Source: a virus
Lineage: Duplodnaviria; Caudoviricetes
Reading direction: 5' to 3' (one strand)
Length of the DNA: 64,000 nt
Virus record (IMG/VR): IMGVR_UViG_3300021400_000252
Positions within the stretch are counted from its first letter, which is position 1. Every line of letters starts with the position of its first letter. Both the position numbers and the translations under genes were made by a program. Shown in pieces: positions 9,764-50,874 of the stretch. Below the pieces are notes generated by a model. The model searched no databases and was not told the DNA's origin. It was given only the letters and a program-made list of their open reading frames with translations.

Positions 9764-11122
9764 ATGGATATTTTCAGAAATTTATTTGAAGAGCTCGCTC
9801 CAGAAGATAATATCGAGAAAATTAAAAAAGAAATATTAAAATTAAAAACTCCAACTGCAGAAAAAACTTCTAACTATGTTTTATATGATGAAGATTCTAT
9901 TAAATATTATAAAGAAAAAGGTGAGCCAGGAACTGTAGACCACGAAACTGAGCGCTATGTATTTAGACTTGGTGGTGGTTTAAATGGCTGTGGTACTTGG
10001 TCTAATTATTTTAAAGATTTAAGTGTAATATTTAAAGAATTAGAAGAAAATACTGGTTGAGCTCCAGTTGCTACTGATTTTTCTTTAGATACTATTGATG
10101 ATGTATTTGATGTTGAAATAACATTATTTAATCCAAAAGACCATGATGAATTAAATGATAAATTAAATGAAGATTTAATTTTTATTGACAAAAATAATGC
10201 TAAATCAAAATTATATGGATTAAGAAAACAAATTGAAACTACTCAAAATGATAGTGTAAAAGAATCATTATTAAATTTATTTAATCTATATCTATATCAA
10301 ATTAAATCTTTAATGTTTGATTATAAAGTAGATTTTAGTGAAGATGAATGGCAAGAAAATCGTAAATTCATGATGGATAACATGGATAACTTAGAAGGTA
10401 AATCTGATCAATTAGAAGAAGATATTGAAAAACATGAAGAGTTAAATCCAAAATTATTTAATGAAGATGAAAAATTAAAAGATGAAGTTTTAGATAAAAT
10501 TAATTTAATTGTTGAATATTTTTTATCTGATCTAGAAGAAGATGGAATTAAAATCGATGTTGAAGATATTATCTTAGTTGGTTCTAACGTAAGTTATAAT
10601 TATACTAAAGACTCAGATTTAGATATTCATATTATTGCTAATACAGATGATTTAGATTGTCCAGACAATTTATATCCATTATTATATGGTGCTTATAAAT
10701 CTTTATTTAATAGAAAGATGGATATTAGTTTCTATGGAATTCCAGTTGAAGTTTATGTTGAAACAGATGATACTCCATTAAGAAGTAACGGTATTTATTC
10801 TGTAAAAGATAATGATTGGATTGTTCACCCGGTTCAAGCTAATATTCCTGATATAGATTTTGATCAAGTTGAAGAATTAGTTAAACCTTATGAAGACAGA
10901 TATAAAGAAATTCTTGAAAATCCATCTGTTGAAGAAATTGAACAACTAATTACTGATATCTATGAAGAACGTAAAAAAGGTATGAGTGATGAAAATGGTG
11001 AATATTCTTTAGAAAATTTATGTTTTAAAGAATTTAGAAACAGAGGTTATTTAGATAAATTAAAAGATTTAAAAAATGAAGTATTATCTAAAGAACTATC
11101 ATTAGAAAATTTAGAAAACTAA
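9764..11122 (+). CDS. Pol-beta-fold nucleotidyltransferase domain protein (452 aa; TGA=Trp at 10058)
   Basis: Track ORFs 9764 and 10313 are in frame across one TGA; ILVGSN...DSDLDIH and VEVYVE motifs. Confidence 0.8.
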
Positions 11123-11171
11123 TTAAAAAGTTGTATTATATTATATATTGATATAATTAGGAGAAATTTAA

Positions 11172-11807
11172 ATGATTTTAAATGAAAAGAAACAAAAACT
11201 TCCAGAGATTTTCCTATCTACATATATTTCAGATGCTTGGGATAGAATTGCTACATTAAAAGCTGATATTGATGGAATTAAAGCTGAATATTCTGATACA
11301 AAAGATGTCGAAGAGGTATTGAATGATTTAATTGATACTTATTTAATTCTAGTAGGTACTTTTGAAAATAAATTAAAATCTATTGGTTCAAATGTTGAAA
11401 TTGTTAGAAAAGAACCTGAAGTAAAGAAGGTAAATGAAAGCGTTTTACAAAGAACACAAGTTCAAAGACCACAACCTGTTCAACCTCAAGTTCAACAAAG
11501 ACCTGTAAATAGAAATCCTCAACCACAGGTTCAAAGAGTTCAACCTCAGCCTCAACAAACTAGAGCTCCTCAATTAGATGATGATTTATGGAGTGATGCA
11601 GTATTTGCTCCACAAAATCAACAAAGAATGAATGAGAGTTATAATCAACAAGCTGTAACTGCTGGTGGATTAGATAGTTATTATGATGCTCCAGTTCAAT
11701 CTAATTCAGATACTTATGATGTTCCAGACTTCCCAGATTCAGATTTCGAGATGTCTCAAGAAGAATTAATGGAATTAGAAAAGTTTAAAGCACAATACAG
11801 AAGATAA
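11172..11807 (+). CDS. Hypothetical protein, Q/P-rich centre
   Basis: 211-aa ORF with AGGAG RBS. Confidence 0.7.
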   Translation: MILNEKKQKLPEIFLSTYISDAWDRIATLKADIDGIKAEYSDTKDVEEVLNDLIDTYLILVGTFENKLKSIGSNVEIVRKEPEVKKVNESVLQRTQVQRPQPVQPQVQQRPVNRNPQPQVQRVQPQPQQTRAPQLDDDLWSDAVFAPQNQQRMNESYNQQAVTAGGLDSYYDAPVQSNSDTYDVPDFPDSDFEMSQEELMELEKFKAQYRR

Positions 11808-11831
11808 TAGCTCAGCTATTATCTTTTTTTT
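11801..11831 (+). terminator. Intrinsic terminator
   Basis: AAGATAATAGC-TCA-GCTATTATCTT plus T-run. Confidence 0.75.
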
Positions 11832-11848
11832 ATTTTTATGTTATCTTA

Positions 11849-11859: not shown

Positions 11860-11978
11860 TCTGATCGATTAATATTTTATTACGTAAAAATGCGTTTTTT
11901 ATCGTTTATATATGAATATTCAAATAAACATTAAAACGCTTCCTGAGCGTAAATTTTTGATGTCTAGTGGAGAATTAT

Positions 11979-13511
11979 ATGGCACTTATTCAGTTATATT
12001 CTTGGATAAATAATGAAGAAGATATTTTAAATTTAGATTTTACAACTACACATTTTACTTCTGATTTAGATGCTGTCGATTATTTTCAAAAAAGAGACAA
12101 TTTAAATATTCCTATCGGAAGTGCTTATGCATTTACATTAGATTTTAATATTAATCCATTAATTTTCTCTTCTGATTTATTTGATTGGTCAGCTAAAAAT
12201 ATTATTAATAAAATATTAAATAGCTATGGAATTAATTTAAATAATGATGAATTTCAAAATGCTAATTGTGATATATTAAATGCACCTCAATTACAAAACG
12301 TTCAAATTGAACAATTAATTGATATGTATAAGTTAATTGATGCTTTCGATGTAAATGATAGTAAGAGAAATAAAGCTTGGTTCGAATATTTATCAATTTA
12401 TTTAAATAAATTAGGAATTAATGCTATTCAATATTCTGTTGGTACTTCAGATTTTTATATTTTATTAACAAAAAATCTTGAAATTATTGAATGTAAGAAA
12501 ATTGAAATTCATAAAGATGGCGAAAGAGATTTATTTAAACAATTTTTCACCGAAGATACTAGAATGCAATTAGTTTCAACTTCAAGAAATGCTGGTCCAT
12601 ATAAAAATCAAAAATACGGAAAAAATAGATTTGAAAGAAAGAAATTATCAAAAATTGCTAGAACAGTAAAACAATATAATAAAATTGATATGAATCAATT
12701 ATTTAAAAATGATGTTTTAGAAGTAGAAATTCCTGTAATTGGAGAATCAGATGAATATTTAGTTACAGTTAGAATGGATGGAGTTATTGCTGAACTAGCA
12801 AAAATTTTAAAAAATAATAAATTCAAATTAGAATATAAAATTGTTGTTCAAGCATTAACTAAAATTTTTAATAGTGCTGATTTACAAATAAATTGTACAT
12901 GTCCAGATCATAAATACCATTTTTCACATTGGAATATTATAAGAGGTGTTTCTACTTTAGATTCAGCACATGACCCAGGACAAGGTAAAGGAATTGCAAA
13001 TCCAAATGATGATCAAGGTCGTGGTTGTAAACACTCTTTATTAGTTTTAAATAATGGAGATTGAATTTTAAAAGTTGCTTCAGTTATTAATAACTATATT
13101 CATTATATGTCAGAAAAGTCTCAAAAATTATTCTTAAAATTAATATTCCCTAAATTATATGGAATTACTAGTGATGAAATGGTTGAACAAGATTTATTAG
13201 ATAAAGAAACATTACAAGATTGTTTAGATTCAAACGAAAGCTTTATTGATGCTATTAATGAGTATGGTAAAAATAGAGGTAAATTCCAAAAAGGTTCTAA
13301 TATTAACCCTGTTTACGCTGATAAGCTTGAAGCTGAACAAAAAGAAGAAAATACTAAACAACAAGTTGATCCAAACAAAAAGAATTTACAAAAAGCTGTT
13401 AAAGAGACAGAAAGAGCTAATAAACTTGCTCAAAAAGAATCTGAAAAAGCTGATAAAGAAGCTTCAAAACCTATTGAACCTCCTAAAGAAGATGAAGAAC
13501 AACCAGTATAG
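11979..13511 (+). CDS. SWIM zinc-finger protein (510 aa; TGA=Trp at 13062)
   Basis: NCTCPD...GCKH; ORFs 11967 and 13107 in frame across TGA; GGAG RBS before ATG 11979. Confidence 0.72.
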
Positions 13512-13563
13512 TTAATATTGTATTATATATATAATATATAATATATCCAGATTGGAGAATATT

Positions 13564-15678
13564 ATGAATTTTGATCAAGAAAAATTTAATAAACTCTCAA
13601 CTGAAGAACAAAAAGTCGTTTTACAAATTTTAAAAGAATATTCTAAAACTGGAAAATCTGAACTTTTAGATTCATTACAATCTATGGAATGGGACGAATT
13701 TCCAGTAGATATTCATACATTCTTACATGACAAACGATATTTAGGAAATGCATTATATGATGCTGAAGGTAAGTTTACAGTATTCCCATACTGAGAAAAA
13801 TGTTTAGAAGATATATTTCCAACTAATACTTCAACAAAATATAATACTATAGTATTTACAGGAGCTATCGGTTTAGGTAAATCAACTATAGCAGTTATTT
13901 GTTTATTATATTTATTATATAGATTACTTTGTTTAAGAGATCCATATCAATATTATGGAATGCAAAGTATTGATAAATTAAGTATTTCAATGATGAATAT
14001 TACATTAGAAAATGCTAGAGGTGTTGCATTAGATAAAATGAATTCAATGCTTTTAGCTAGTGAATGGTTTATGAGTCATGGTGAAATGCATGGTACAACT
14101 AATATGAGATATGTTACTGATAAACATATTGAAATTATTTGTGCTTCAAGTAATAATCAGATCATAGGTCGTGCTTTGTTTGCTAACTTTACAGATGAAG
14201 TTAACTTCTCTCTTGTTCAAGACCCAGTTAAGTCTAAGAAGAGAATGATGAAAATTATTACTCAAGTAGATGCTCGTATGAAATCACGTTTCATGCGTGG
14301 TACCTACTTACCTACATTAAATATTATCGCATCTTCAAAAGATAGTGAACAATCTTTCCTAGAAGAATTTATTCAAAATAAACAAAAGAATGAAAGTAAA
14401 AATACTTTAATTGTAGATGAACCTCAATGGGTAGTTGACCCAAGAAAAGATTCACCTCAAAAATTCTGGGTAGCTATTGGAGATAAAGTTCTTGCTAACG
14501 AATTATTACCATTAGATGCAACTCCAGAATTAGTTGATGAATATAGAAATAAAAATTATACAATGTGACAAGTTCCAATTGGATACTTAGATACATTCCA
14601 ATTAAACCTTGATGAAGCAATTTGTTCTATAATTGGTATTGCAACAGCAGCATCTTTAAAATATATTTCAGGTGAAAGATTAGTTAAAACAAAAACTACT
14701 GATTATGAAAATCCATTCCTGAATGATATACTTGAAATTGGAGATGGAGAAGATGATTTACATCAATATTCAGAATACTTTGATTTAAGTAGAGTTAGTG
14801 ATAAAGACAAAGAAAAACCATTATTTATTCACTTAGACTTATCTGAGTCTGGAGACATGACTGGTATTGCAGGCGTATGAATAACTGGTAGAGATGAATC
14901 ATTTGATAAATCTAAAATGATTGAAAATGATTTTAGTCAATTATCAAAATTAATTTTACAAGAATCTAGTGTAGAATCTCAGATGTTAATTTATAAATTA
15001 GCTTTCTCTGTTTCAATTAAAAATCCTAGAGGCGCACATATTAGTTCAATAAAGCATAGAATATTTATAAATTGGTTAAAAGATAATGGATTTGATATTA
15101 AAATGATTACATCAGATACTCACCAATCTGCTACTCTTTTACAAGAATTAAAAGCTGATGGATTTGAAACAGAAGTATTATCAGTAGATAGAACAACATC
15201 ACTAGAAAATAAAAAGAAAGTTTGTTTACCTTATCACTATTTTAAAACAGCAATTTATGAACGCCGTTTCATAATGTATGACAAAGCTAAACTATTAACT
15301 GAAGAGTTATTAGGATTGGAACGTGAAGCTGATGGACACATCAACCACCCTGAAAATGGTAAATATGGTTCTAAGGACCAAGCCGATGCAGTCTGTGGTG
15401 CAGTATGAACAGCTAGTAAAAATGGTGAAAAATATTCATTTGATTTTGGTGATTCAATTGAAACAACTGTTCAAATTTCAAAACCAAGTAATACAAGTCA
15501 AAATGAGATTGAAAAACATGATTTTGGAAAAAATCTATTAAATGTAATGTCTAAAGAAAAATATATTGAAGTTGATGAATATGGTAATCCAAAATATTAT
15601 GGAGACCTAGATGATACTGCAATAGATGATGATGCTATAAATTCAATAGCAATTTCTAATGGAATAATTTGTATATAA
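13564..15678 (+). CDS. Terminase large subunit (704 aa; TGA=Trp at 13792, 14566, 14878, 15406)
   Basis: Read-through restores Walker A TGAIGLGKS, Walker B FTDEVN, nuclease HLDLSESGD and KDQADAV; ends TAA just before portal. Confidence 0.92.
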
Positions 15679-15694: not shown

Positions 15695-17758
15695 ATGCCA
15701 GAAAATGATAACAAAACTAAAAAAATTAAAAAACAAGCATCTCAATTAGTAGGAACACTAATTCAAGCGACTCCTAATAATAACGATAATACTCGATTAG
15801 ATGTAGATTTAAATAAAACGTTAGAAGACATTTTAATTTTAGGTGGATTAGAGGATAGAGTAAATTTCTCAGAACTTGAAAAGTTTACACAAATTTCAAA
15901 TTCAAGAGACTATATGTATAGTCAATTAGACACAATGTTCCAAGATGCATCAGTTTCGGCTATTGCAAGAATTTTAACTGAAAATGTTTGTGAAGTTGGA
16001 GATAATGGTCATATTGTTTGAGCTGAGTCTGATGATCCAAAAATTAGTAAATTCGTAAATTATGTATTAAATACTATGAATGTAGATAAAAATATTTTTG
16101 GATGGGCATTTAATCTTGTTAAATACGGTGATATCTATTTAAAAAATTTAAGAAATTCAGACTTTACAAATACAATTTTTAATTCACAAAGTATTCAAAA
16201 TATGTATAGTGCTAAATCTCATTTAAACGAAACTATTCAATTAGATTTAAAGAATGCTAATGATGAATTCTGTTGGAGATTAAAATTAGTTCCAGATCCT
16301 GCTACTATGTTTGAATTAAATCAAAATGATATTACTTTTGGATATGTTGAAACTCCAAATGATATTACTCAATTAGCTAATCAAGATGCATATGCAGCTA
16401 ATACTGGTTTAAATTCTAATGCATTAAATGGTGGTGGATCATTTAATTATAAAGTTAAATCAAATGATATTATACTTCATGATGCTGAAGATTATATTCA
16501 TATTTATTTATCAGATGGTCAATCAAGATTCCCAGAGACTATCGATTTAATAATGGAACCTGACATTAAAGATAAGAATGCTAAGAATCGTTCAAATTTA
16601 AAATCAACAACTTATGCTTTTGATGTTATTAGAGGAAAATCATTATTCTATGATGTTTATAAGATTTGGAGAGAAAAAACTCTTATTGAATCCGCATTAT
16701 TACTTGCAAGATTAACTCGTTCATCAGTATTTAGAATTGTTTCTATTGAAACAGCTAATATGGATAGAACTAAAGCTAATCAATTACTACACCAAGTAAA
16801 AGATATGTTTGAACAAAAACGTGCTTTCTTAAGTGGTAAAAATGCTTCAGATTATAATAGCCCAGGTCCAATCGAAAACTGGATTTATAATAATACTAAG
16901 AATGGTAAAGGTGCTATCACAGTTGATACTGTAGGTGGAGATTATGATCCAAAGAATTTAACTGACTTAGATAAATGGAACGATAGATTCTACGGTGCAT
17001 TTGGTATTCCTAAACAATATTTCGGATTAACCGAAGATGGTGCTGGATTTAATGGTGGTACTGCATTAACTATTACTTCAACAATTTTCCAAAAGAAAGT
17101 TTCTCAAGTTCAAAATGCTTTAATTCAAGGAATTAATACTGCAGTAGATTTATATTGTATTAAAAAAGGTTTAAAATCTTACGTACATAGATACACTATT
17201 AAGATGAGACCTCCAGTTTCTCAAGAAGAACTTAATTATAGAGAAAAATTAACAAATCGTTTAAATGCTGTATCAACTGCTAATGCTTTATTCCAAGATG
17301 TTGAAACAAAGAGTAGTAGATTAATTATCTTAAAGAATTTATATAAGATGGTTGATTATGGTGAAGATGAAATTCTTCAAGTACTAGATGAAGAAATTAA
17401 ATTAGCAAAAGCTGCTGAAGCTGAAGCTAAGAAACAAAAAGAAGAGGAAGCTAAACAAGCTGCTTTAGATGCTGCTAATGGTGAAGCTGCTAATGCCGAG
17501 CCAGCAAATGTTCCTGGTGGTACTGGTGAGACAGGTGGAGCTAATGAAGCATCAGCTCCTGAAGGTGAAACAGCTAGTGAAGGTGATGATTTAAATCTAG
17601 ACTTAAATCTTACTGATTTACCAACAGCTGAATCTTTCAATAATACTAACCCAGATGCAGTAACATTAAATGAGGATGTTGACTTTCTAGATGAATCAGA
17701 AGATCTTCCAACTCCAGAAGAATTAGATGATAAAGTAGATTTTACTAAAAATAAATAA
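15695..17758 (+). CDS. Portal protein, T4 gp20-like (687 aa; TGA=Trp at 16019)
   Basis: Follows terminase; LDTMFQDASVSAI, KYGDIYL, RSSVFRIVSIE, FGIPKQYFG. Confidence 0.85.
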
Positions 17759-18916: not shown

Positions 18917-18959
18917 TTTGTAATCAAATTGATTAATGATATGTAATGGAGGTAAGTTC

Positions 18960-20939
18960 ATGAATAACACTACGAATTTATCAACAGATAAAATCCGTGA
19001 AGCATTACATTTTCAAGAATTAACTCCTGAAGAAAAACAATCAAGAGGAATTCTTGGTAGACTTTATGGTCCTTGTGCTTCATTCATCGCACCAACAAGA
19101 AATGATCGTTTCTATGGTGATGAGTTATGGACTAATGTATTTGAAAAAAATGAAATAGTAAAAGAAATGTTTGATAATGGTGGTATTCCAATGGAACTAG
19201 ACCACCCATTAGGAGATAGAGAAGAAACTACTTCAATTAACATTGCAGCTATTCTTCCAGAAAGACCTAAAAAAGATAAAGATGGACATTTAATTACTTA
19301 TGTTGATATCCTAGATACTCCAAGTGGTAAAATTGTTTATACTTTAGCTAAGTATGGTTTTAAATGAGGTATTAGCTCAAGAGGTTCTGGTGAATTAATT
19401 TCTGATTATGACGGACATGAGTCTGTTGATCCAACTTCTTATGATTTTCAAACTTTTGATTTAGTATTACTTCCAGCAGTTAAAGATGCACGTTTAACAT
19501 TCGTTGAATCTTATGATGCAAAACAAAAAACCGCTATGAAGAAAATGAAGAGAGAATTAAAAGAAGCTTTAAGTACAGCTTCAGATGGAGATCGAAAAAT
19601 TATGGAAAATGCTTTAGATAATTTAAAGATAAACTTAGATGATGAAAATCTTAGTCCAGAAAATGTTGTAACTGAAGCTATCTCAGATAAAATGTTTGAT
19701 TTAAATAATGCTCCAAAAACAACACCAGATGGAATTGAAATTGAATATGTAAATATTGATGATTTCGATAGCTGGTTAAATGAAGGCTTAGATGATTTAG
19801 ACGAAGCTAAAAAGGACGAAGATCAACCAGAAGATAAAGATAAAGATAAAGAAGAAGAAAAAGATTCAGATAAAGATAAAAAAGAAGATAAAAAAGATAA
19901 AAAAGAGGACAAGTCAGAAAAGAAGAAAGATGACAAGTCTGATGACGAATCTGAAGAATTTGAACCTAAGAATGAATTTACTGTAAAAGAAATTACAGAT
20001 GCATTCAAAGGTCTTGATAAAGATGCAGTAGTAAAAGTACTACCAGTTGAAATCGATAATAAAGAAATGAATATTAATCTTTATTTTGATAAAACTGATG
20101 AAGACAACCTTGTTATAGGTGGTACCATCGCTCCTGAAGAGAACGATGAAAACATAGATAATCCTGAAACTGAAGAAACTATTGATGTATTCGGAAACGA
20201 AGACGTTGCAGCTAGTGATACTGGAGCAGAGGAATTAGTAGACGATTCATTTATAGAGGACTTCAAGAAAACTGTTCGTGAAAATAAAGCTTTAGAACAA
20301 AAAGTTAAGACTTTAGAAAACGAAAAGACAGTTAGTGATGCTAAGGTTAATGAATTAGATAAGGAACTTAACCAATATAAAGAAGCTTTCAATAGAACAA
20401 GTCAGGTTGCGTCTCAATATAAGAAATCAAAATTAGAAATTCAAAACTTAAACAATCAGTTAGCTGAAAAAGATAACCAAATTAAAGCTTTAAGTGAAAA
20501 ATTATCTAATAACAAATTAACTGAAAGTTTAGATTCTACTAAATTAGAAGTTACTAAGTTAAAACAACAATTAGTTGAACAAGCTACAAACTATAAGCAA
20601 AAATATGCTGAAAGAACTGATGTAGCTAAGAAGTACAAATCAATGTATTTAGGTGTAATGCAAAAATATGTTGAATCAAAAGCTAATATGTTAAACGTTA
20701 GAGCTTCAGAGATCACAAGTAGACTAGACAAAAACTATACTACAGATGATGTAGATCAAGTATGTGATCAAATCTTAAATGAAGGTATGACAATGTCAAA
20801 TATGAGTCATTTACCTTTAACAAATGCAAATACTAAAGTTAAATTCAGTGAAGGCCTACAAAGACAACAAGCTCCTAAAGAGGATGCTGGATATGAGATC
20901 GCTGATTGGGCTCTAGAACTTGCAAATATGGAATATTAA
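18960..20939 (+). CDS. Prohead protease (T4 gp21-like) fused to acidic/coiled-coil scaffold (659 aa; TGA=Trp at 19365)
   Basis: ELDHP, DILDTPSGKI; after the TGA come GISSRGSG and FDLVLLPA; frame continues into ORF 19536; GGAGG RBS. Confidence 0.9.
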
Positions 20940-23413: not shown

Positions 23414-24136
23414 ATGAATGTAACCTTAGCTGATGTTATTAGAGAGATTAAACGTAAAGTTTGGGCAGGTGACAACCTAGAGCATGATCTAGAAGATGTT
23501 GATCTTAATGAGATTGTAAATGAATCGATTCGAGAAATAAGACGATATTTCGATGAAACTGCTAAAGTGACGATTCCATTCCAACGATGTATTAATCTAA
23601 ATGAACAAAAATTTAAACCAAGTTCTATAATAAAAATTTATAAAGTAAATGGAAATAGTGTTAATACAGATGATATAAATGTTAATACCGACCCACTATA
23701 TGCTTATCAATTTTTAATATGGAGTAATGGTGGTACTATGTACAATGTACAAGATTACACTTATAATTATGGTGCTTGGAGTACTATGAACCAAATTCGA
23801 AATACTTTAACAACTGAATTAGATTTCGAAGAGGATAAACAAAATAATTTAGTTTATATATTTACGAGTTTGAATCCAAAAGCAATCACACTTGAATATA
23901 TTCCAAGAATTGAAAAAGTTGAAGATATTCAAACAGATAGATGAATAGATATATTAATTCAATTAGCTGTAGCTCATACAAAAGTTGAAGTTGGTAGAAT
24001 TAGAACAAGATATACTACTTCAAATGAACTATGGGGTGATGATGCTGAAAAAATGTTAACTGAAGGTCAAGAAGAACTAAAAGCTTTAAGAGAAAAACTT
24101 GAAGAAGAAGACTCAGTTATACCACCATTAAATTAG
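23414..24136 (+). CDS. Neck/head-tail adaptor, T4 gp13-like (240 aa; TGA=Trp at 23942)
   Basis: Read-through gives WIDILIQLAVAHTKVEVGRIR...EGQEELKALREKL. Confidence 0.75.
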
Positions 24137-29872: not shown

Positions 29873-30185
29873 AAAATATGATTCTTTTAAAGTAAAAGAT
29901 AAAATACGTGTAACTGCTGTAAATAATGTGCTTAGATACTCTCATAAAAGCACAGAAAGAGCTTTAGATAGATATATAAAAGAACAGTATAAAATGTCTT
30001 TAGAAGATTTATGTTTAGTTATTATATATAGTACTAAAATCGAACAAGTAGCTCCGAGAGAATATACAGTGATTATTCCAGACCCACGTTTAGATGATGC
30101 TGCAAGATTAATTACTTTCGGTGACGGAAAATTATTTGGAAGTAATATTCTCTTAAAAGCTTTTGATTGGAAAGGAGTTTATTAA
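29847..30185 (+). CDS. Hypothetical protein
   Basis: 112-aa ORF with GAGG RBS. Confidence 0.65.
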   Translation: MHFSISLDKKYDSFKVKDKIRVTAVNNVLRYSHKSTERALDRYIKEQYKMSLEDLCLVIIYSTKIEQVAPREYTVIIPDPRLDDAARLITFGDGKLFGSNILLKAFDWKGVY

Positions 30186-30999: not shown

Positions 31000-32658
31000 A
31001 TGCCATATCGTAATATATATGAAAAAGATTATACAAGACCTGTATCATCTGCTGCTGGTAGTAACTTTGCAGTTTTAGTTCCAGGTTTTGTTGGTGATGG
31101 AACACCAGATGAGGATACATTCGTTAATGGTGTTGCAGAGTTTGATACTCAAGCCGATTTTATTAAGAAGATTGGTAAAAGAAATGCTTTAGTTGAATAT
31201 ACTCCAGGTGTGAAGGAAAAAGATGCAACCGCACCAGTTATTGCTGATATATCTAAATATGTTCCAGCTGAAGCTGAGCCTACTGATGGTACAACTGATG
31301 AAACTCCAACTGATGAAACTCCAACTGATGAAAAAGCTCCAGAAGATACAATTACAATAACATTCAATAATGGTGAAACCACAGAAGAAATAGTTTTAAT
31401 TAAAAAGGCTTATGCGGAAATATCTGATAGCCTTGAAGGTAAAACATTAGTTCGAGCTACTATTAATGAAAAACAAGCTATAACAACAGTTGGTGAATAT
31501 AAATTAGGAAACTGTGAGTTCACACCAGTTGATCGTGAAGCTGCTGTTGATACTGAAAAGTATATTGTATTAGATTCAATTGGAAATGATCATATTGAAG
31601 CTGTTGATGAAGTAAAAATTTATCATTTTGGTAACCAAATCGCTTATGAATTATTAGGACTTGGATATCACGTTTTATTTAAAGAAATAAAAAGTGTTTC
31701 TGAGTTAAATACTGATGAATTCTACGATGGATTAGAAGACAAATCAGTTTATAATTTCAGATATATTCTTTCAGGATTAAGAACTGATAATACAACTGCT
31801 AATAATAAACTTGCTGCTTTAGCTACATTACGTGGTGATACTATAGCATTATTAGATTTAGATGAGAATTGTTATTTAGATCAAAAAATTCAGTCAAGTC
31901 CACTTGAATTAGCTAAAAGTATGACTAATACAATTAATACCTTAACTTCAGCTAACACCAACTCAACTATATTAGCTCCATCATTAAAGTTATATATGAA
32001 TGATGATCAAGTTTATAACAATAAAACATTACCAATGTCTTTATATTATCTAGCATGTGCTAAGTATGCTTTAGAAAATAATTACAAAGAGTGGTATGCC
32101 GTAGCAGGTTATAGACGTGGTATTTGTAGATATACAATAGATAAACCATTATTAACTGCAGGTGAAACTTTAGTTAATAAATTATCTCCAAGACGTCAAA
32201 CAACTATTGGAACAAATCCAGGTGGTGGACAATGTATCGTATCTAAAGCTTGTAATCTAGTAGCATTAATTAAAGGTAATTATTATATTTGAGGTAACAG
32301 AACTGCTGAAACACTTGGTGATGCTCAATCTGGTGAACTAAGTGCTAAACATTACTTAAATATTAGACAATTGATTACTACTTTAAAACAAGAATTATAT
32401 ACAGTATTAACTTCAAAAACATTTAATCCTAATAGTGATACATTATGGTATTCATTCAAGAGTGCTATAACACCTATACTAGAAACTATGGTAAATACTG
32501 ATGGTATTGCTGATTATGAAATTAGACGTTCAGAGAATACTCAAAAAGGAACAATGAGTGCAGTAATCAGATTAGTTCCAATTGAAGCTGTTGAAGATTT
32601 CGAAATTACTATTTCTCTTGAGAATTCTCTTGAAGAAACTGGTACTATTTTAGAATAA
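31000..32658 (+). CDS. Contractile tail sheath protein (552 aa; TGA=Trp at 32290)
   Basis: RGDTIALLD, WYAVAGYRRG; read-through restores IWGNRT and YLNIRQL; FNPN. Confidence 0.92.
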
Positions 32659-34669: not shown

Positions 34670-34698
34670 ACTGATAGTTTAATTGATTGGAGTTCAAG

Positions 34699-39189: not shown

Positions 39190-39202
39190 TTTGGAGATTT
39201 AT

Positions 39203-39529
39203 ATGGATAGATTAAAAAATAAATCTTATAAAAACTATAATTATACAAATCGATACACTACAGTACCATATTATTATGATACTAAAACTGGAAAATATGT
39301 TTATGGTATAGGAACTTCTATGGATAAATCAATTCCATACTATACTCATAAATTATCTAGTAATGATACATTAGATTACTTAGCTTTAAAATATTATGCA
39401 AATCCAACTTTATGGTGAATTATTGCTTATTTTAATGATATTATAGATCCATTTATTAAATTAACTGACTGTTATACTCAAATCAAAATTCCAAATATGG
39501 CAAGTATTAAATTTGGAGCAGATAGATAA
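39203..39529 (+). CDS. LysM-like baseplate wedge protein, gp53-like (108 aa; TGA=Trp at 39416)
   Basis: DTLDYLALKYYANPTLW-W-IIAYFNDIIDP; stop overlaps next ATG. Confidence 0.82.
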
Positions 39530-40851
39530 TGATAAACACTAAATTAAAATTTTCAGAACAAAGACGTAGTTTATTATCTGATGGTGCTAGAGTTCAAGTA
39601 CCTTGGATAAAAGTTACTATTGGTAAATATACATTTGGAGTATTTTCAAAAACAAAAGCTACAAAAAATGTAGACGGTTTTTATGAAAATTTTAATGTAA
39701 TGTATCCAAATTATATTTCAAGACTAGATATAACAAAAATTAATGGTCAAGTTAATCAATACACATTAACTATTAATTATCCTATTACAGTTAATGATGA
39801 TCCAAATTTCTTTGAAAAAGTCTTTTCGAGTGTAAGTAGTTCACGTAAAATAGTCTTTACTTATGGAGATTGTTCATTACCAACTTATGTTTATAAAGAC
39901 GAAGAAGCAATTATTACAAAAGTTACAACAAATGTATCTCTAGAAAGTTCTAAAATAACTTATGTTGTTAATGCAACTTCAACAGCAACATTAGGTCTAT
40001 CTGGCTCTATTACTAGAATTAGTGATGAAAGACCACATAAACCTAGTGATATAATTAAAGGATTATTTAGAGATAAAACAACAGGACTTCAAGATTTATT
40101 TAAAGGTATGAGCGTTGATAACTTAGATAAATTAATAGATAGTTCAGACCAAGCAGTTGTCTTACACTCTAAAGTAAATATTTCAGTATTAGATTATATT
40201 TCATATTTAGTAAGTTGTATGATTCCAGATGGCTCTGTTGTTGGAGATAGAAGTAATGCTATATACATATTAACTATTCATGATGAAACATTATATGATA
40301 GAGCTTATGAATCTTTAGGAACAGCTAATGATTTATTAAATGTAGGTCCTTATTTTAAAGTTACTAGAACAACACACTTAGGAAATCATTCAGACGCGTA
40401 TAATATTGATGTTGGATATAATACTTCAACTATTGTTTCTAACTTTTCATTACAAGATAATGAGAATTATGCATTATTCTATGATTATCAAGCTGAATTA
40501 AATCAAAATAATTATGTTAGAAGAATTAATTCAGATGGAGTATGAGAAGATGTGTATGCTCCAAGTTTAGCTTCAAAAAATGAGCATTTTGAAGTTAGAA
40601 CTGAAGATAGAACATGGTGGACAAAGATAACAAAATATCCTGTAAAAGCTTCTATAACCATTCAAGGATTATTACGTCCAGCAGTATTAATGTCTTATGT
40701 AAGATTAAATGTAATCTTTCCTGGTGGACATAAACATATTTCGTCTGGATTATATATTATAACAAGTCAAACAGATTCAATTAGTGAAAGTGGTTATAAA
40801 ACAACATTATCTTTAACTAAGATAGATGGTGATGATGATATTAAAATTTAA
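39529..40851 (+). CDS. Baseplate hub protein (440 aa; TGA=Trp at 40543)
   Basis: C-terminal ASITIQG...SGLYIITS...GYKTTLSL hub pattern joined through TGA. Confidence 0.72.
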
Positions 40852-41921: not shown

Positions 41922-42305
41922 ATGCGTTCAATTAAATTTCCAAATATGTTTAATACGAATAGTACTAATGTATGAAAGTCTTCTGAGTATAAAGAAGCAA
42001 CCGCACAAAACACAGAATTAGTTCTATTAAGTGAACGTCGTTCTTTAATCGGTGACCCATTCTGGGGTGGATTAATCGATTCATTAACTTTTGAACAAAA
42101 CTCTCAAATGACATCTGAAATTTTGGCTGATGTAATTTATGAACAAGTTTCAATTTTTATACCTCAGTTAAAAATTAGACGTGAAGATATAGTTATAAGA
42201 CGTGAATCAGGAAAAATATATGCAGATATTCATGGAATAAATCAAATAGATTATCAAAATGATCTTTACACTTTAATACTTTCAAATAATTCATTAAACG
42301 AGTAA
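41922..42305 (+). CDS. Baseplate wedge/sheath initiator, gp25-like (127 aa; TGA=Trp at 41973)
   Basis: AAGGAG RBS at ATG 41922; LLSERRSLIGDPFWG...FE. Confidence 0.78.
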
Positions 42306-42320: not shown

Positions 42321-45300
42321 ATGATAAATAATAAAGATATCGCTGCAATTGAATTATCACCAACTGCTAAAGATTATTATCAAATATGGAACGAATTACT
42401 AGAGACTGCAAAAAAGCTTTCTGCTAGATGGGATCCAACAACAACAAATGAATCAGATCCTGGTATCGTTTTATTAAAAGTTATTACAGCTATTGTAGAT
42501 AGACTAAATTTCCAAAATGATATTACAGCTCTTGAAGTTTTTATGCCATCTGCATCTGAATTTGAAAGTATGCAAAAATTATGTAATATGATGGGATATA
42601 ATATTAAATATTATCAATCAGCAACAACTGATGTTACGTTATATTATAGTGGACAAAAAGAATGGACAGAGTCTTCTTATTTAATTCCAATGTTTACTGC
42701 TTTTACAAATGCAGATAAAAGTATAAATTATTTTACAACTGAACCAAAATATTTAACAAAGAATTCATACGGAGTTCTATTACCTTGTATTGAAGGACAA
42801 ATAGAACAATGTGAATCAGATAATGATAATATTATTTCTATTTATCAATTAGATGATAATCATAGATATTATTTCTCTGAAACTCAAGTTGCTCAAAATG
42901 GTATCTTTGTTTTCAATATTAATGATGGAAATAAGAGTGAAAGATGGACTGAAGTAGATAATTTAAATTCTCAACAAGCAAAGAGTAAAGTATATAAATT
43001 TGGATTTGATTCTAGATTAGCAAAACCATTCATCGAATTCCCTGAAGATATTAGTTCAATAATTGAAGACGGTCTAGAAATTTATTATACTAGAACATCT
43101 GGTATTAGTGGAAATATTAGTGCTCGTGAATTAAGTGCTTTCGTAACAGTACCTTCAACATTAAGCGATGGACTTGATGGTGATTCAGCAAACTATACTA
43201 TTGTTAATGCTTCATCATCAACTAATGGAGCTAATATTGAATCAATTCCTGAAGCTTATACTAATTATAAAAAGACAATAGGTACTTTTGATACATTAAT
43301 TAATTGTAGAGATTATATGAATAAAATCTATCAATTAAAAGATGATGCAAATATTGATTTAGTTTCAAATTGTTTAGTTTCAGATATTAATAATGATATT
43401 AACCACTCTATTAAATTATGTACATATAATGATTATGGAATTTATTATAAGAACGTTCAAACTTCTGATGATTCTCCTATTGATAACTTTACATTAACAT
43501 TATATCCATTTAAGAGAGTAAATAATTTAAATACTAAATCTGAGTACTTAAATTCATTTAAATTGGATAGAAGTGTTTTAACAGATATTGAAACTAAGCT
43601 TGAAAATCTTAAGACATTAGTTCATAAATTTAGATTACCTTCTGAAGAATACGGTGACAATAAAGAACCAGAAATTGTTGCAATTAAGAATTACTTACAA
43701 TTAAAGGCTATCATTACTACTACTGAAAGAGTAAATAAAGCCGAGCAAAGCGTAATTCTAGCAAACATTAAGACTGCAATTTATGAAAACTTTAATTTAC
43801 GTAAATTAGATTTTAGTGAACAAATTCCATATGAAAGCATACTAGAAGTAATCACTAATGCAGATAAAAGAATTAAGAATGTTAACTTAGACGAACCAAC
43901 ATTATTAACAAAATTTTTATTAGCAAATAATAATGAATATAGTGTTGCTAGTACTTATTCTATAGATCAATCAAATAAAAAATTTAATAACTTAAGTGGT
44001 GAAGAACAATTAAGTAGAAAGATATATAATAAACTTGCACTTAGAAATATCTTAGCTGGAAAGCTTGAGTTATTTAATTATAATACTGAATTTAAATCAT
44101 CATTCACTGAAGCTAAATATCCAGACACTACTACTATTAGTGTTGTAACACCAAAGGCAGGAGATTTAGAAAGATATGGTGTTGTAAAAATTAATACAGC
44201 AACTCAATATGATTTAAATAGTACTGGAGATAAAAAATTAACTAATGGTGAAATAATTCAATTTAGATCTAAAAATCTAAGAACAACAATTACATATCCA
44301 GCATATGTAAATTATTATTTATCATTAAAAAATACTTCAGGATTGGATAATTCAGCAAAACCTGCATCATTTATCACTTTATATGATTGTTTAATGTATT
44401 TAGGTAAATCATCAAGTACTCCATTATCATTTAGTACAAGTCAGAGTTCATTTACTTTTACACCTACTTCTATCTCAAATGAAGTTGAATTTAATGCTTA
44501 CGATGGTAGAGAAATCTTATTTGTACAATCTACAACAGATAGTACTAAATATAACACAGGAAATGGTTGAGTAAATGACCAACGTCAAAGATTCGTAAGT
44601 GACACTACATATTATACTTTAAATGTAAAAGCTGCAGATAATTTCTACGCATTAGTTTCTTATATTAAAAAGAAAATTCTTGTTAACTCAATTTATTATG
44701 ACGGAATTTATAAATGTTTAGGTGCAAGCAAGAATTATATTCCAGGATACTTAATTGATCAAAATCAATATAAATATACTAGATTACTTTTTGCTCCAGT
44801 TAATGGTAGCTGGACTAGTTACTTTGTTCAAGATCCAACTAATGGATATGCTAAAGCAGAAAATAATTATAGCTTAGGTAAGGATGCTGTTCTAGAAGGT
44901 CTTGCAAAGAATGGTGAATATCAATTAAAAGATGGAGAATTCTTATTAATTAATTACACTAATTCAGAAACAGAAACTGACGGTACATCACAAAAAGAAA
45001 CCATAATAAATAAATATTATGGAAAAGGAACTATAATTAGACCTAATTTTAAAATGGTTGATTCAATTCAAAAGTTCAATGCTGGTAGTTCTTATACTAA
45101 AACAGATATAGATTTTAAAACTGCATTCGACGAAGCTAACGTTCAATTAACAAATACTGTTTATTCATTATTTACATTAGGTTCTGATGAACAAATTGAG
45201 ATAAGAGAATTTGCTGATATTTATTTAGATTCAAACACAGTGTACTTATATTGGAATTTAAATAATAGTTCAAATGTATTAAGACTTAAGTTTGAATCAA

Positions 45301-47159
45301 AGAAAACTGTTGGTGGTTATAATGTATATACTCACACTTATACTCTAAGTGAGAATGAATATATTTATTATTCAGATCAAAATCAATTAGACATGGCATA
45401 TTATGGAAATGGTACAAAGATTTCTATGAAACAATATGTCTCAGTTTCAACTTCTGTTGATGAATCAGAATTACGAGCTGATAGAACATTCTATATTAAA
45501 GATAAGACTGTAAATAATGAAACAATTTTAACTGAAGGATTAAGAAGTATTCCTTGGCAAAAATTTAACTTTGATTCACACTCTATTGATTCAAATAAAA
45601 CATTCATGGTTTTAACTGAATATAATTATATAAATTTAATCGAAGGTGATTATATTGTTAACTTAGAATTAGATACTGAAGATTCAGATGAGTCTGATGG
45701 CTCAGCATTAGCGAGTGAACAAAAAATTGGTAATGACTGAGTTAAAATTAAGCAAAACAGTCTAGTTAGTTATTATTCAGACGGTGTTTACAAAGAATTA
45801 CCAAAATTAGATTTTGAAGATAAAGAAAATTACTGGGAAGTCTCTTGTAAATTAGTTTTAAACTGTGGACCGGATTTAGATCAAACATTAGTAAATACTA
45901 ATGATACAATTACTTTACATTTATTAAGTAAGACTATAATTAATGATATTATTAATAGTTATAATGAGACTGGTGCGGATATTAAAGGAAGTATTGATAG
46001 CAAGATTGCAGAATATACTCAATCACCAGACCAATCAAATTATAAACCAATAGAATTAAAGAAAACTAATAATCAATATCCATTAAACTTAAAATCTAAT
46101 TATGAATTAAGAAATGCATATGGTGATATTTATACTTTAATTCAGACTACAGATTCTGATACTGGTGAAGATACATTTATTTATGACTTTAAAGTTAAAT
46201 CAACTAGTATAAATAATCTTACAACTGCTTTAAATACATCATTAAATCAATCATTACATAACGTAAGTGATAATTTAACAAGATTTTCATTCAATGAAAT
46301 CTTCAACTCAAGATTAGTTACTCAAAATCTTGATTATAAACCAAATGATGATAATGTTAATCTAAGTTTATTACTTCCAATTGAAAATGCTGGTGCAGGT
46401 ACAACTCAAACAAATTGGCAATATGGAATAGTGATGATTTATTATATTAAAAATCAAACTACTAAGACAAATGTTCAAGATGTTGCAATAACACTTTCAA
46501 CCGCTACATCTGCACCAACACCAAAGATATTTGGAAACTTTGTTAAAGATCCAGAAGATAATCTATCAAATGTAGATCCATCTAAATTTGGTTGGTGGAA
46601 CCAAGACAGTGATAGTTTAAGTGCTGATACATATTATAGTTATAATAGTGGTACTTATTATAAATTAAAACCAGGAATAAACATTTTATATATTCCATCA
46701 TCAGTTACATTAAAGATTTATCCAGATGTTTATTCTGACGATGGTGGTACTACATATAAATTAAAATGTGAAGATTCGATCATCATATCTGATTTAAGTT
46801 TAGTTAATGCAACTAGAGATAATATCTTCGGAATTAATTTAGATTTAGTTCATTATTATATTACAACTAAAGCTTCACCAAGTGATAATGAAGTTAGTGA
46901 TATTGGAAAGCAATTAATTCTTGATATTAGTAAGATAGATAAAGATAATGAATTCTTCTACAATTCTCCTATTAACAATAATAATGCAATTGATATTAAC
47001 ACAAAAGCATTAGATGTTAATGGAGATAATGAGAGTTTACAAAGTCCAAATATTTGGTACAGCAGAAACAATGTAAATAATCCATATGTAATTTCTGAAA
47101 TCGATATAAAGTCAGTTGATAGTAATATTCAAATAGCTAGATCTTCAATGAAGAATTAA
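42321..47159 (+). CDS. Large baseplate wedge protein, gp6/J-like (1612 aa; TGA=Trp at 44568, 45738)
   Basis: WDPTTTNESDPGIVLL, MMGY, GANIES...RDY; three track ORFs share one frame broken only by TGA. Confidence 0.85.
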
Positions 47160-47868: not shown

Positions 47869-47890
47869 TATATAGAAAGTTGAGTGTAAT

Positions 47891-48478
47891 ATGACTGATA
47901 CTTATTTAGACTCATTACAATACACTGGAACAATTATTGTTAAAGAATTTAAAGGTAAAGAGTTAATAAAAATAAATAAATTTCATAATCAAGGTTGTGA
48001 TCCGTTATTTAGATTCTTTGCAAAGTGTCTTGGAGGAGATTTTGCTTCTGCAAAATTATTAAAACCAACTAAGATAAAATTATTTGATGTTATTAATAAA
48101 AATTCCGATTCGCCTGCTGGATTTGATTTTAGTACTACATCAATGAGAAATGTATCTACTGATTTTATTTATTTAGATACAAATGTATTTGTACAAGAAG
48201 ATAAAGCTACCTTTAGATTTTCAATTCCATATTCATATCTAATTGGTAGCTTCCTATCTGTTATTGGATTATATGCTGATTCAGAAACAAATGATAAAGC
48301 ACCTTGTGCTTATTATCTACTAACAAAAGAAGTTGTACAGAATTATAATAAGATATTAGAATGGGATCCAGTAGATATTCGAGATAAAAACCATAACTTT
48401 AGTTTATTAGTTGAATGAACAATGCAAGTAAGTAATCCAGAAAAAATTAAAGAGAATAATGTTGTTAGTAGTAATTAA
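47891..48478 (+). CDS. Tail-fibre attachment-like protein (195 aa; TGA=Trp at 48416)
   Basis: IGLYA...; read-through gives LLVEWTMQV and ends TAA beside next RBS. Confidence 0.62.
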
Positions 48479-48489
48479 GGAGAAAAAAC

Positions 48490-50874
48490 ATGGCTATAAA
48501 TTATTTTAAAAGTGATAATGTAGAAGTTTATCCTTCAGCATATAGAGGAACATATAAAAAAGATAATGAATTATATACTTATAATGTTGAAAGTTCAATT
48601 TATACAGAAGTAAATCATACATTATTCTCACATATTAATAAAGATACTTACATTATTACTGATCCAGATAAAGTCTCAAAAAATAATCCACTTGAAGTAT
48701 TGATTCATGGATATTATTTTAAAATACTTAATCCAAGTGAGCTTTTTGATACAACAGGTAAATTCAATATTAGTTATTTAGGTATTAGAACTAAGTTAGT
48801 TCCTATTGGTACAGATCAAAATAGTACAATTTTATGTGCATTTACTAATGATACTAATGTTGATAGTACTGGAACATTAGATGTAGCAAATGGTGATTTT
48901 GTCGGACTAGCTTATTCAAAAGATGTTAAACCTGTAGAAGGCCAATCATCTGAATATAAATACTATTTCTTAGACTTTACTACTAATGACAAAAATGAAT
49001 TATACGGTAAAATCAAAAATGTTGATTTAGAAGACGATATTATAACTACAGAAAAAATAGTTGATCAAAGTGTTACTACAGACAAATTACATGATGGTGA
49101 TATCACAACTGAAAAAGTTAAAGATGAAGCTATTACTCATGAAAAAATAGCTGATAATGCTATTGAAAATAATAATATTAAAAATAATACTATTGAAAAT
49201 GTAAAGCTTCTTAATAAAACTATTGAAGGTAATAAGATTAAAGACAGTACTATCGGTACAAGTCATATTATTGATAAAGCAGTTACTTCTAAGAAAATTG
49301 CTGAAAGTAATGTATTAACTGAGCATATCAAAGACGATAATATTACTTTTGATAAACTTGGACCTGGAGCTATTAAATATGATCCAGATAAACGTATTAT
49401 AGCTGATGATGCAATTAGAGCAAGTAATATTGCTGCTAATAGTATTATTGAAGAGAAAATTCAAAACTCAGCAGTAACAACTAAGAAAGTAAATGATAAA
49501 GCAATTACAACAGAAAAAATCGCAGATAAAGCGGTTACAAACGATAAGATTGCTCAAAGTGCAGTAAAGACTGATAATTTAGATTCTAATGCGATTATTT
49601 ATGGTGCTAAATATATTGTAAATGCTAGTGGAAATGGAAATAGATATACTCGTAGCGATAAATTATTATTTATTGACAATGGTGAAATTAAAGAAAGTAA
49701 CGTTAACATTGGTTCTGTAAATAACCCAGTATATTTAGATAATGGTATATTTAAGTCAGTTAATAGAACTGGTTCTTATTCTAAACCAATTGTTGGAATA
49801 AATGATTTAAACTATGCTTTTGTTAATGATGGTATTCAATTTAATAGTTATGCAAAAATTTATCTTTCAGGAAATAAATTATATGTAAATAGATCATTAG
49901 ATTTATCAAATAATAATATTGAAAATATTAAAAAGATTAATGTAGGTGAACTTAATGCAAATACGTTTACAGCTCAAACATTTAAAGTAAGTGGTTCTAT
50001 TATTTGTTATGGTAGTCCAAGTATTAAACTTGCAGGTGGACAAAACATTGTTTTCCAAGATGTACCAAGTGAGCATACTGGAACTAAATTATTTATTAAG
50101 ACAAATAATAATGGAATAAAACTATCTGCAGAACATTATGCTTATAATCCTAGTTCATGTTCTAGTACAAAAGATACAGAAAATTATTTATGGTTAACAA
50201 AAGATTATACTCAGTTAAATAAAAAATTATGTGGTACTGGAAGTCTTATTCTAACAAACTCTAGTTCTGAATCTTCTCGAATAACACTAAATAGTTCAGA
50301 TATTAGTATTAAAACTGATACTATAGTTTTGAATAATGATACTAAGATTTCAAATGGTAGAGTTCGATTCATTAAAACTCCTTACTTTAACAAAGGTATA
50401 TATTCTGATACTTTTGACCTAACATATTCTTGATGGTCAAATCTTTGAAAATATAGTGATTATTATTATAATAGTTCTCTATTACAGGATATAGTTGCAA
50501 ACACAATACATGATCGTGGATATACATCCAGTACATTAATATTAATAGAAGGAGTTGTTTACTTTAACTTAAGTTATCATGATAGTGATCAACTTCGAAG
50601 AAGAATCGGTATACCATTTGCAATAAGTGCTTACTATTATAGTAATGGAAATTATGTTGATAAACTTCCTGATTCTTATGATCAGAGTTATGTTGCTGTT
50701 GCAAATCTAGATTATTTATTAGGATGGGATAAAGATAATGGAGGTATTTATCTAGAAATCGAAAATAGAGAATTTAGACTTAGAGGATTTAAAGGACAAG
50801 GAAGCAATAACGAAGTATTTCAATATATCGATAAGCCTGGAATCATTATTTCTAGAATTAGTACATTACATTAA
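48490..50874 (+). CDS. Tail fibre / receptor-binding protein (794 aa; TGA=Trp at 50431, 50446)
   Basis: Decapeptide (A/S)(I/V)TTxKIxD repeats; frame stays open for 147 codons from the first TGA. Confidence 0.75.

Follow-up and report, generated by a model that had tools for sequence, protein, structure and literature searches.

In-frame TGA codons, probably read as tryptophan, in the virion genes of a phage encoding a two-armed tRNA(UCA)

In Mycoplasmatales, which use genetic code 4, UGA is read as Trp throughout the genome, by a system that the bacterium itself encodes: Trp is specified mainly by TGA, RF2 has been lost, and the tRNA has a normal short variable loop. Long variable arms are a property of class II tRNAs (Ser, Leu, bacterial Tyr and Sec) and of allo-tRNAs. 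Among phages, reassignment of TGA has been described by Borges et al. (10.1101/2021.08.26.457843) in a roughly 200-kb 'Jade' clade, with a 'code change module' of suppressor tRNA, TrpRS and RF1, and in a roughly 127-kb 'Agate' clade. TAG-to-Gln recoding in crAss-like and Lak phages, confirmed by metaproteomics, is a comparable case (Yutin et al., PMC7886860; Peters et al., PMC9523058). It has in common with the system described here a phage-specific stop reassignment, late gene blocks and phage suppressor tRNAs, and it involves another codon, another amino acid and other phage lineages.

We analysed a 64-kb stretch of phage DNA, called the window below. It probably covers the virion genes of a contractile-tailed phage of roughly 230 kb, derived from metagenomes of the gut or rumen type, that has reassigned TGA from stop to Trp. 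This phage is a further member of the TGA-recoded phages of Borges et al., and recoding as such is already well documented. As in those phages, G+C content is low (28%, even across the boundary of the virion block), TGA has been lost as a stop and appears to serve for Trp instead, structural genes contain in-frame TGAs and adjoining DNA-metabolism genes contain none, the suppressor tRNA is encoded in standard-code DNA, and close relatives use the standard code. The enrichment is seen for structural genes; no lysis gene was identified in the window. A relative, G002, is a complete 232-kb contig collinear with the window and, like Jade, has TrpRS and RF1, here in tandem, both TGA-free and directly followed by heavily recoded genes. 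The window differs from the published phages in its sparse use of TGA and in its tRNA, which has a second, CCA anticodon-like arm; the word 'anticodon' is absent from the main text of that paper. Neither TrpRS nor RF1, both part of the Jade module, was found in its 64 kb, including the interval at 54.8-63.4 kb that is syntenic to the G002 module; either may lie in the roughly 170 kb of the genome outside the window. As in code 4 of Mycoplasmatales, a Trp-type tRNA(UCA) would insert Trp at UGA, but here recoding is a trait of the phage, is partial, and involves a tRNA with an extra arm.

TGA as a sense codon in the virion block

All 21 predicted coordinates are TGA and in frame, and they fall in 16 genes, all on the + strand and each ending in TAA or TAG. 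Treating TGA as sense (table 4) reduces the number of open reading frames of at least 60 aa between 9740 and 50900 from 43 to 32 as pieces fuse, and raises coding coverage of this interval from 86.2% to 95.6%, near the 97% of the upstream flank; a comparison of tables 4 and 11 had been proposed with the original prediction. Among the 44 complete genes of the window, 38 end in TAA, six in TAG and none in TGA. Trp codons within the virion block (9.7-50.9 kb) comprise 88 TGG and 21 TGA (21/109, 19%), so that TGG remains the main Trp codon there (81%), and those in the rest of the window comprise 39 TGG and no TGA (21/109 versus 0/39, Fisher one-sided p = 0.0009). The original prediction had claimed each of these features: frames that continue past TGA, genes that end only in TAA or TAG, about 40 Trp codons outside the block that are all TGG, and a concentration of TGA in morphogenesis genes. 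All are borne out by the counts.

Seventeen of the 21 sites lie within tblastn alignments to relatives. The large terminase (708 aa, 13552..15678) has four, at 13792, 14566, 14878 and 15406. The first is TGG in G001, L137, Rhizobium phage TM39 and Maribacter phage Colly_1, the second and third are TGG in L003, and the last is TGG in TM39. Since L001 and L002, 99% identical contigs from two other metagenomes, carry the same four TGAs, these are not assembly errors. TGG also stands opposite TGA 13062 (residue 366) of a 514-aa gene (11967..13511) in L003 and G001, and in G001 and L137 opposite both 16019 in the portal protein (687 aa, 15695..17758) and 23942 in a 240-aa gene (23414..24136). The tail sheath (552 aa, 31000..32658) has TGA 32290, which is TGG in L140, L142, L143, L144 and L148 and TGA in L141. 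In a baseplate wedge-like protein (112 aa, 39191..39529), TGA 39416 encodes the second W of 'LWWII'; it is TGG in nine relatives and TGA in L138 and L141. TGA 40543 of a baseplate gene (440 aa, 39529..40851) is TGG in L138, L140, L141 and L142 and TGA in L139, TGA 41973 of a 127-aa gene (41922..42305) is TGG in L139 and TGA in L138 and L142, and TGA 48416 of a 195-aa gene (47891..48478) is TGG in L138 and L147. A large tail/fibre protein (1612 aa, 42321..47159) carries 44568 and 45738, the latter TGG in L138 and TGA in L139, L141 and L142. Profile matches run across the TGAs in the terminase (residues 36-631, spanning all four), portal (45-589), prohead protease (10-234), sheath (27-515) and baseplate wedge (21-106). 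The examples of family-conserved Trp in the original prediction hold for the sites at 32290 (five relatives), 39416 (nine) and 23942 (two), but its labels 'LysM' and 'neck' had no Pfam confirmation.

Other sites are less conserved. TGA 19365, in a prohead protease/scaffold-like gene (667 aa, 18936..20939), is TGA in L135 and Leu, Phe or Ile in other relatives; 30242, in a 250-aa gene (30167..30919), is Val, Thr, Tyr or Ala in relatives and not a conserved Trp; and 35032, in a 786-aa gene (34687..37047), is Leu in G001. Four sites are called from continuity of the frame. TGA 29069 (residue 51) belongs to a 317-aa gene (28919..29872) with no homologue across the site, and 50431 and 50446 to a tail fibre protein (794 aa, 48490..50874) in which 147 further open codons follow. 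The fourth, 10058 (residue 99), is in a 452-aa gene (9764..11122) with a homologue in the tail module of G001, a C-terminal half that matches phrog_36119, and no RBS or start signal ahead of the next ATG; here a 97%-identical database protein of 449 aa, on a 230-kb contig, additionally has W at the site.

Opposite the 17 covered sites, the 87 non-gap cells in relatives contain TGG 32 times, TGA 18, Leu 9, Tyr 9, Val 5, Phe 3 and Ala 3, and no Gly, Ser or Cys. Trp-type codons make up 57% of these cells, and the same 57% is found opposite the window's own TGG codons (171 TGG and 44 TGA of 374). Because the two profiles match, TGA is best read as Trp, as the original prediction had it. Cultured standard-code phages have TGG opposite terminase sites 13792 and 15406. 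G001, a standard-code relative whose 6,806 aligned codons include no in-frame TGA and which has TGA stops in 47 of 130 genes (0/44 in the window), has TGG at 5 of the 15 sites it covers. These comparisons show that the 21 in-frame TGAs are sense codons, which in evolution have behaved exactly like TGG; that the residue inserted is Trp is what the alignments point to.

A tRNA(UCA) with a second hairpin

The suppressor tRNA gene (54055..54150, + strand, 96 nt, anticodon UCA), absent from the original prediction, has a Trp-type body, with A1-U72, G73 and an acceptor stem of 7 bp. Except for a 22-nt insert, it can be aligned over its whole length with the ordinary phage tRNA-Trp(CCA) of the window, which reads TGG (58753..58826, + strand). 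Its anticodon is UCA, not CCA, and in place of the short loop (4-5 nt) of bacterial tRNA-Trp it has a variable region of 26 nt that forms a hairpin (54097..54122, + strand), the loop of which, G-U-C-C-A-A-A, repeats the CCA anticodon loop of tRNA-Trp. Across 19 distinct members of the family, the stem of this second hairpin covaries, three of its four pairs having changed at both positions, and its loop keeps U-C-C-A-A almost without exception; 17 of the 19 have A1-U72. The 7-bp acceptor, 4-bp D and 5-bp T stems of the family all covary.

The long additional hairpin, placed between anticodon arm and T arm, recalls class II tRNAs and allo-tRNAs, and because of it ARAGORN calls the gene 'SeC'. 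An identity as tRNA-Sec was considered and rejected: the acceptor stem has 7 bp rather than 8, and the D stem 4 bp rather than 6. The best match in the Rfam clan is RF00005 (tRNA), not tRNA-Sec, and true tRNA-Sec genes from the same scans lack this loop architecture. The molecule differs from class II tRNAs in its Trp-type body, in an arm whose stem has 4-6 bp and whose 7-nt loop conserves U-C-C-A-A, and in its longer single-stranded linkers. We found no paper in the literature on a Trp-type tRNA(UCA) with a second hairpin bearing a CCA loop.

No TrpRS gene is present on any of five phage contigs (two complete) that carry tRNAs of this type, and a host enzyme must therefore charge them. We tentatively propose that the second hairpin serves as a decoy anticodon arm of Trp type, which would let the CCA-demanding TrpRS of a standard-code host charge a UCA tRNA; the evidence makes this a serious possibility that still falls short of being the likelier outcome. 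Since Trp-type tRNA(UCA) genes with a single arm occur in other phages likewise without TrpRS, charging by the host does not strictly require the extra arm.

The tRNA gene lies 43 nt downstream of a promoter-like motif, TTGCTAAATTT (54003..54013, + strand), of the same class as the motif found before virion operons; TTGCTAAAT precedes the protease, sheath and baseplate operons as well as the tRNA. Nine exact + strand copies are present, all intergenic, among a total of 10 matches (2.4 expected), and the motif is conserved in G002 before genes with RBS and ATG. From this position and conservation we infer a role as promoter. In the scheme we favour, host TrpRS would charge tRNA(UCA) with Trp, perhaps helped by the conserved hairpin that displays a CCA anticodon loop, the tRNA would then decode the TGAs, and the host itself would use the standard code. 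Terminase, portal, protease, sheath, baseplate and fibre proteins would remain incomplete until the tRNA is present. Because the tRNA stands behind the same motif as the virion operons, this dependence would be of a feed-forward kind and not the work of a key made early. A synthetic feed-forward loop for leak-free expression, as outlined in PMC7969014, likewise places a stop codon in the target and the suppressor tRNA under the target's input; that loop is engineered, whereas the shared promoter class of the window is one that we infer.

Placement of TGA and competing explanations

The original prediction held that TGAs act as a translational lock on assembly genes. In the form of the model of Borges et al., selection would keep TGAs in these genes so that virion and lysis proteins await a code switch. 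Within the window only the virion block has TGA, at least one occurs in each of a set of essential assembly genes (terminase, portal, protease, sheath, baseplate and fibres), the same pattern has been published for recoded gut phages (10.1101/2021.08.26.457843), and in G002 the TGA-free TrpRS and RF1 module directly precedes heavily recoded genes. The distribution of the codons does not bear the lock out: 16 genes are hit, as against 14.0 ± 1.5 expected for random placement among Trp codons (p = 0.17), positions within genes are uniform with no 5' bias, and TGA supplies only 19% of Trp codons in the block. Moreover, 14 of the 30 block genes have none, those for the major capsid protein, tail tube and baseplate hub among them, genes that are TGA-free in the window have recoded homologues in G002, and the tRNA shares its promoter-like motif with the genes to be unlocked and with TGA-free modules. 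We saw no evidence that placement was selected, the counts favour no designed placement, and we consider an adaptive lock rather unlikely. TGG would instead have drifted to TGA as A+T pressure acted on a module in which the change, thanks to the suppressor, does no harm. Pure drift within one expression class leaves a further observation unexplained, however. TGA-free genes at 1293-9739 and 54-64 kb also lie behind the TTGCTAAAT motif and hold 31 of the 39 TGA-free Trp codons, and 0/31 has a probability of about 0.001 at the block rate. As these modules have the same motif, the split is one between the virion module and other modules, and not demonstrably between late and early genes.

A historical origin, in which the virion module came by exchange or descent from a more strongly recoded relative and its neighbours from a less recoded background, would account for TGA sites common to different relatives (13792 in L003-L005; 39416 in L138 and L141; 45738 in L139, L141 and L142) and would suit a clade that mixes standard, partial and pervasive recoding and TGA-free modules that carry the motif of the virion genes. 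G+C is even across the boundary, though, and over the first 64 kb the genes follow the order of G002, and we regard this origin as improbable. It is more improbable still that the host itself uses code 4 of the Mycoplasmatales type, with the phage following its host and the phage tRNA merely boosting supply. The 28% G+C genome and the pervasive recoding of G002, in which no tRNA(UCA) was detectable, fit such a host. Code-4 Mollicutes prefer TGA for Trp, however, and TGA use of 0/39 outside the block and 19% within it, despite 28% G+C, counts against one. So do the phage's own tRNA(UCA), with its apparent device to satisfy a CCA-demanding TrpRS, and close clade members that use the standard code with TGA stops; a code-4 host would also make the TrpRS and RF1 of G002 needless, and Borges et al. 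predict standard-code Firmicutes or Bacteroidetes as hosts of such clades. Least probable of all, to the point of being hardly credible, is that TGA is read as Gly (code 25), as Sec, as Ser through the long-armed tRNA or as Cys, or that the TGAs are real stops or sites of programmed readthrough in split genes. The ARAGORN label 'SeC' speaks for a reading of this kind; a long variable arm with G73, generally known as serine identity features, is what SerRS recognises, and some serylation may occur. The absence of Gly, Ser and Cys opposite the covered sites, together with the 57% of Trp codons there, argues against this reading, with code 25 rejected on 0 Gly in 87 cells. The tRNA, with 7-bp acceptor and 4-bp D stem, aligns with tRNA-Trp(CCA) and is an ordinary tRNA in Rfam, single conserved domains cross the TGAs, and code 4 restores coding density.

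Implications for code change in phages

If the second hairpin does serve as a decoy arm, it would answer how phage suppressor tRNAs are charged, which Borges et al. left open. As a handle for the synthetase, the two-armed tRNA would be a natural answer to a problem of genetic-code engineering, that anticodon-dependent synthetases refuse suppressor tRNAs. Its architecture may also be part of the reason that suppressors in code-4 phages are wrongly labelled or overlooked by standard tRNA finders.

On one gene order, three states can now be compared: the standard code in G001; sparse, virion-only recoding with its own tRNA in the window; and pervasive recoding with TrpRS and RF1 and no visible suppressor tRNA in G002. 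Such a set permits tests of stepwise stop-codon capture, and a test that separates regulation from tolerated drift as the basis of block-wise recoding. Should the decoy-arm proposal be correct, the clade would have two routes to code change, a two-armed tRNA as in the window, or a phage TrpRS and RF1 without a recognisable suppressor tRNA as in G002.

In-frame TGA codons and the residue they encode

The window, at 28% G+C, carries nearly all of its genes on the + strand. Its left flank holds a topoisomerase fragment (23-1186) and an ATPase-containing module (1293-9739). A contractile-tail virion module spans 9.7-50.9 kb (the block), with genes for the large terminase, portal, prohead protease, major capsid protein, sheath, tube, T4-type baseplate parts and fibres. 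The right flank starts with genes for a helicase and a SIS-domain protein. Beyond them come a tRNA(UCA), a DUF5662 gene, a ROOL RNA and another sixteen tRNAs; this region also contains YqeY-like, HAD (RNA-repair type) and metallophosphatase genes. Megablast of 20 kb of the block gave no match among GenBank phages.

All 21 in-frame TGAs that had been noted, in 16 genes, are present at their coordinates. Re-calling genes with table 4 reduced the ORFs of the block from 43 to 32 and raised coverage from 86.2% to 95.6%. PHROG profiles cross the TGAs of the terminase (all four), portal, protease, sheath and wedge genes, and the same terminase TGAs occur in two 99%-identical contigs from other metagenomes. 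Genes had also been noted to end in TAA or TAG, and we count 38 TAA, 6 TAG and no TGA stops; in G001, a relative that uses the standard code, TGA ends 47 of 130 ORFs. The recoding observation is thus confirmed. At sites 10058, 29069, 50431 and 50446 the open frame is the sole support; at 10058, no RBS or start signal precedes the next ATG, and W occupies that position in a 449-aa protein of 97% identity. Small TGA-bearing ORFs at 58703, 58730 and 60009 overlap tRNA genes and are therefore spurious.

We gathered relatives from IMG/VR and read off the codon opposite each TGA and TGG of the window. Opposite TGA stood TGG (32), TGA (18), Leu (9), Tyr (9), Val (5), Phe (3), Ala (3) and a few others, with no Gly or Ser. 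Trp-type codons fill 57% of non-gap cells opposite TGA, and the same share (57%, 215/374) opposite TGG. In G001 (129.5 kb, 42% G+C), none of 6,806 aligned codons is an in-frame TGA, and 5 of the 15 window TGA sites that it covers are TGG; two terminase TGA sites are TGG in cultured standard-code phages. Because the codons opposite TGA match those opposite TGG, and standard-code phages have TGG at several of the sites, the proposal that TGA is read as Trp in the window is well supported by these alignments, on which Sec, Gly and Ser readings were rejected.

Distribution of TGA and a promoter-like motif

Within the window, TGA is concentrated in the morphogenesis genes, as originally noted: the block has 21 TGA and 88 TGG, the flanks none and 39 (p = 0.0009). 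The further idea that these codons act as a translational lock on assembly genes fared less well. If TGAs fell at random among the 109 Trp codons, 14.0 +/- 1.5 genes would be expected to carry one, close to the 16 found (p = 0.17), and the mean relative position of TGA within genes is 0.50. Fourteen block genes have no TGA. The major capsid protein (20976-22406, +; 476 aa) has neither kind of Trp codon and the tail tube gene (32678-33304) encodes all six of its Trp with TGG, so the most abundant virion proteins avoid the recoded codon.

A strand-specific motif, TTGCTAAAT(TA), is found between genes nine times (10 matches in all, where 2.4 would be expected), and six further copies have one mismatch. 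Intergenic copies of (T)TGCTAAATTA on the + strand lie at 1231, 7758, 11849, 18323, 18906, 23318, 23383, 30946, 33376, 34659, 41884, 54003, 55740, 60621 and 61008. Of the nine exact copies, seven precede the operons at 1293, 7835, 11967, 18936 (protease), 31000 (sheath), 34687 and 41922, one lies 43 nt 5' of the suppressor tRNA and one is at 61008; the copy at 55740, 5' of the tRNA array, has one mismatch. The motif is kept in G002 (IMGVR_UViG_3300033463_000007, a recoded relative) before genes with an RBS and ATG, and is absent from G001. It probably acts as a phage promoter whose core resembles an extended -10 element. If so, the suppressor tRNA shares its promoter class with the genes that the tRNA serves. 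Genes of that class also hold 31 of the 39 flank Trp codons, all TGG, so the contrast is between virion and other modules, and not demonstrably between late and early genes. Neither codon placement nor the motif, then, supports a selected lock. That virion protein synthesis depends on the phage tRNA, the putative decoder, follows mechanically.

A sigma-70 promoter scan around the suppressor tRNA found sites no more numerous than in shuffles. The region's best such site, TTTACA-17-TATAAT (54915-54943), is found just 5' of a full-length ROOL RNA (55078-55695, +; Rfam RF03087, 247 bits), which follows the suppressor tRNA and precedes the tRNA array.

A suppressor tRNA with a second arm

ARAGORN labels the gene at 54055-54150 (+) 'tRNA-SeC', and Rfam scores it as an ordinary tRNA. 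It aligns end to end with the tRNA-Trp(CCA) of the window, sharing A1-U72, G73 and the anticodon-arm frame, and departs from it solely by 22 nt inserted into its variable region. A pattern scan of IMG/VR in which only the UCA anticodon arm was fixed returned 56 tRNA(UCA) genes in three groups. About 30 (some two dozen distinct sequences) carry an extra hairpin with a U-C-C-A-A loop, typically a 4-6 bp stem and a 7-nt loop N-U-C-C-A-A-N, on mostly ordinary Trp-type bodies, a few with an extended D arm. The second group comprises true tRNA-Sec genes, which lack this loop, and a smaller third group of normal length includes some Trp-type tRNAs without the extra arm. An alignment of 19 distinct sequences shows covariation in the hairpin stem, where both partners have changed in 3 of 4 pairs, and almost no variation in the loop. 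We read the extra hairpin as a putative second anticodon arm. No description of such an arm in a suppressor tRNA was found in a literature search covering few subscription journals, nor in the preprint on stop-codon-recoded gut phages (Borges et al., 10.1101/2021.08.26.457843). That study detected a suppressor tRNA in only 35% of code-4 phages and left charging open. A TrpRS family search found none in five contigs with a two-armed Trp-type tRNA(UCA) and none in five with a single-armed one, a result that cannot tell the two designs apart.

The array of sixteen tRNAs (56138-60201, +) includes tRNA-Trp(CCA) and two each of tRNA-Met, tRNA-Phe, tRNA-Pro and tRNA-Gly. It also encloses two protein-coding genes, one YqeY/GatB-tail-like (57948-58493) and one for an RNA-repair-type HAD protein (59154-59660). 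Some synthetases have YqeY domains that bind tRNA, and the YqeY-like protein could help with charging.

Code use in relatives and the probable code of the host

G002 (232,051 bp, rated complete) is collinear with the window and has far more TGA, also in homologues of genes that lack TGA in the window, and contains a few TGA-poor blocks. Its coding coverage rises from 59% to 90% under code 4. ARAGORN, relaxed ARAGORN, Rfam and a stem-loop regex found no tRNA(UCA) in this complete contig. At 177006-179060 it carries two TGA-free genes in tandem, for TrpRS (TIGR00233, 324 bits) and RF1 (prfA, 472 bits); a motif copy and genes with 9 TGA/2 TGG and 8 TGA/0 TGG come directly after them. The tandem corresponds to the 'code change module' of the Jade clade (Borges et al., 10.1101/2021.08.26.457843); the syntenic interval of the window has neither gene. 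Among other related contigs, L137, L140, L143 and L148 use the standard code, and L141 and L142 are strongly recoded.

At about 207-210 kb (L161:9640-10045, L161:7003-7077), G002 also has a tmRNA gene (85.5 bits) beside a tRNA, and a c-di-GMP-I riboswitch (49.5 bits). Insertions in the terminases of G001 (59911-60329, about 0.4 kb) and G002 (15076-16151, about 1.1 kb; 16447-16844, 0.4 kb), missing from that of the window, could be inteins, introns or homing-endonuclease inserts; the terminase homologue of Bacillus phage HSE3 has an annotated intein. Searches of sheath and wedge proteins against solved-structure sequences gave nothing usable, only spurious antibody matches.

The terminase has no relative among genomes representing each prokaryote species, and hence offers no prophage or host clue. 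Scanning a genome collection for two-armed tRNAs returned mostly true tRNA-Sec of G+C-rich Proteobacteria. Five Trp-type two-armed tRNA(UCA) matches (L163, L177, L179, L180, L192) sit on low-G+C contigs in gut MAG bins assigned to Phoenicibacter/Coriobacteriia, Oscillospiraceae, Treponema and Bacilli; the contigs probably belong to phages that were binned along, and are not a reliable host clue. We infer that the host uses the standard code because TGA is absent outside the block at 28% G+C, the phage has its own tRNA(UCA), standard-code relatives exist, and G002 encodes TrpRS and RF1.

The window phage joins the TGA-recoded phages already published from gut and rumen, and its two-armed suppressor tRNA is the unusual part of its system.
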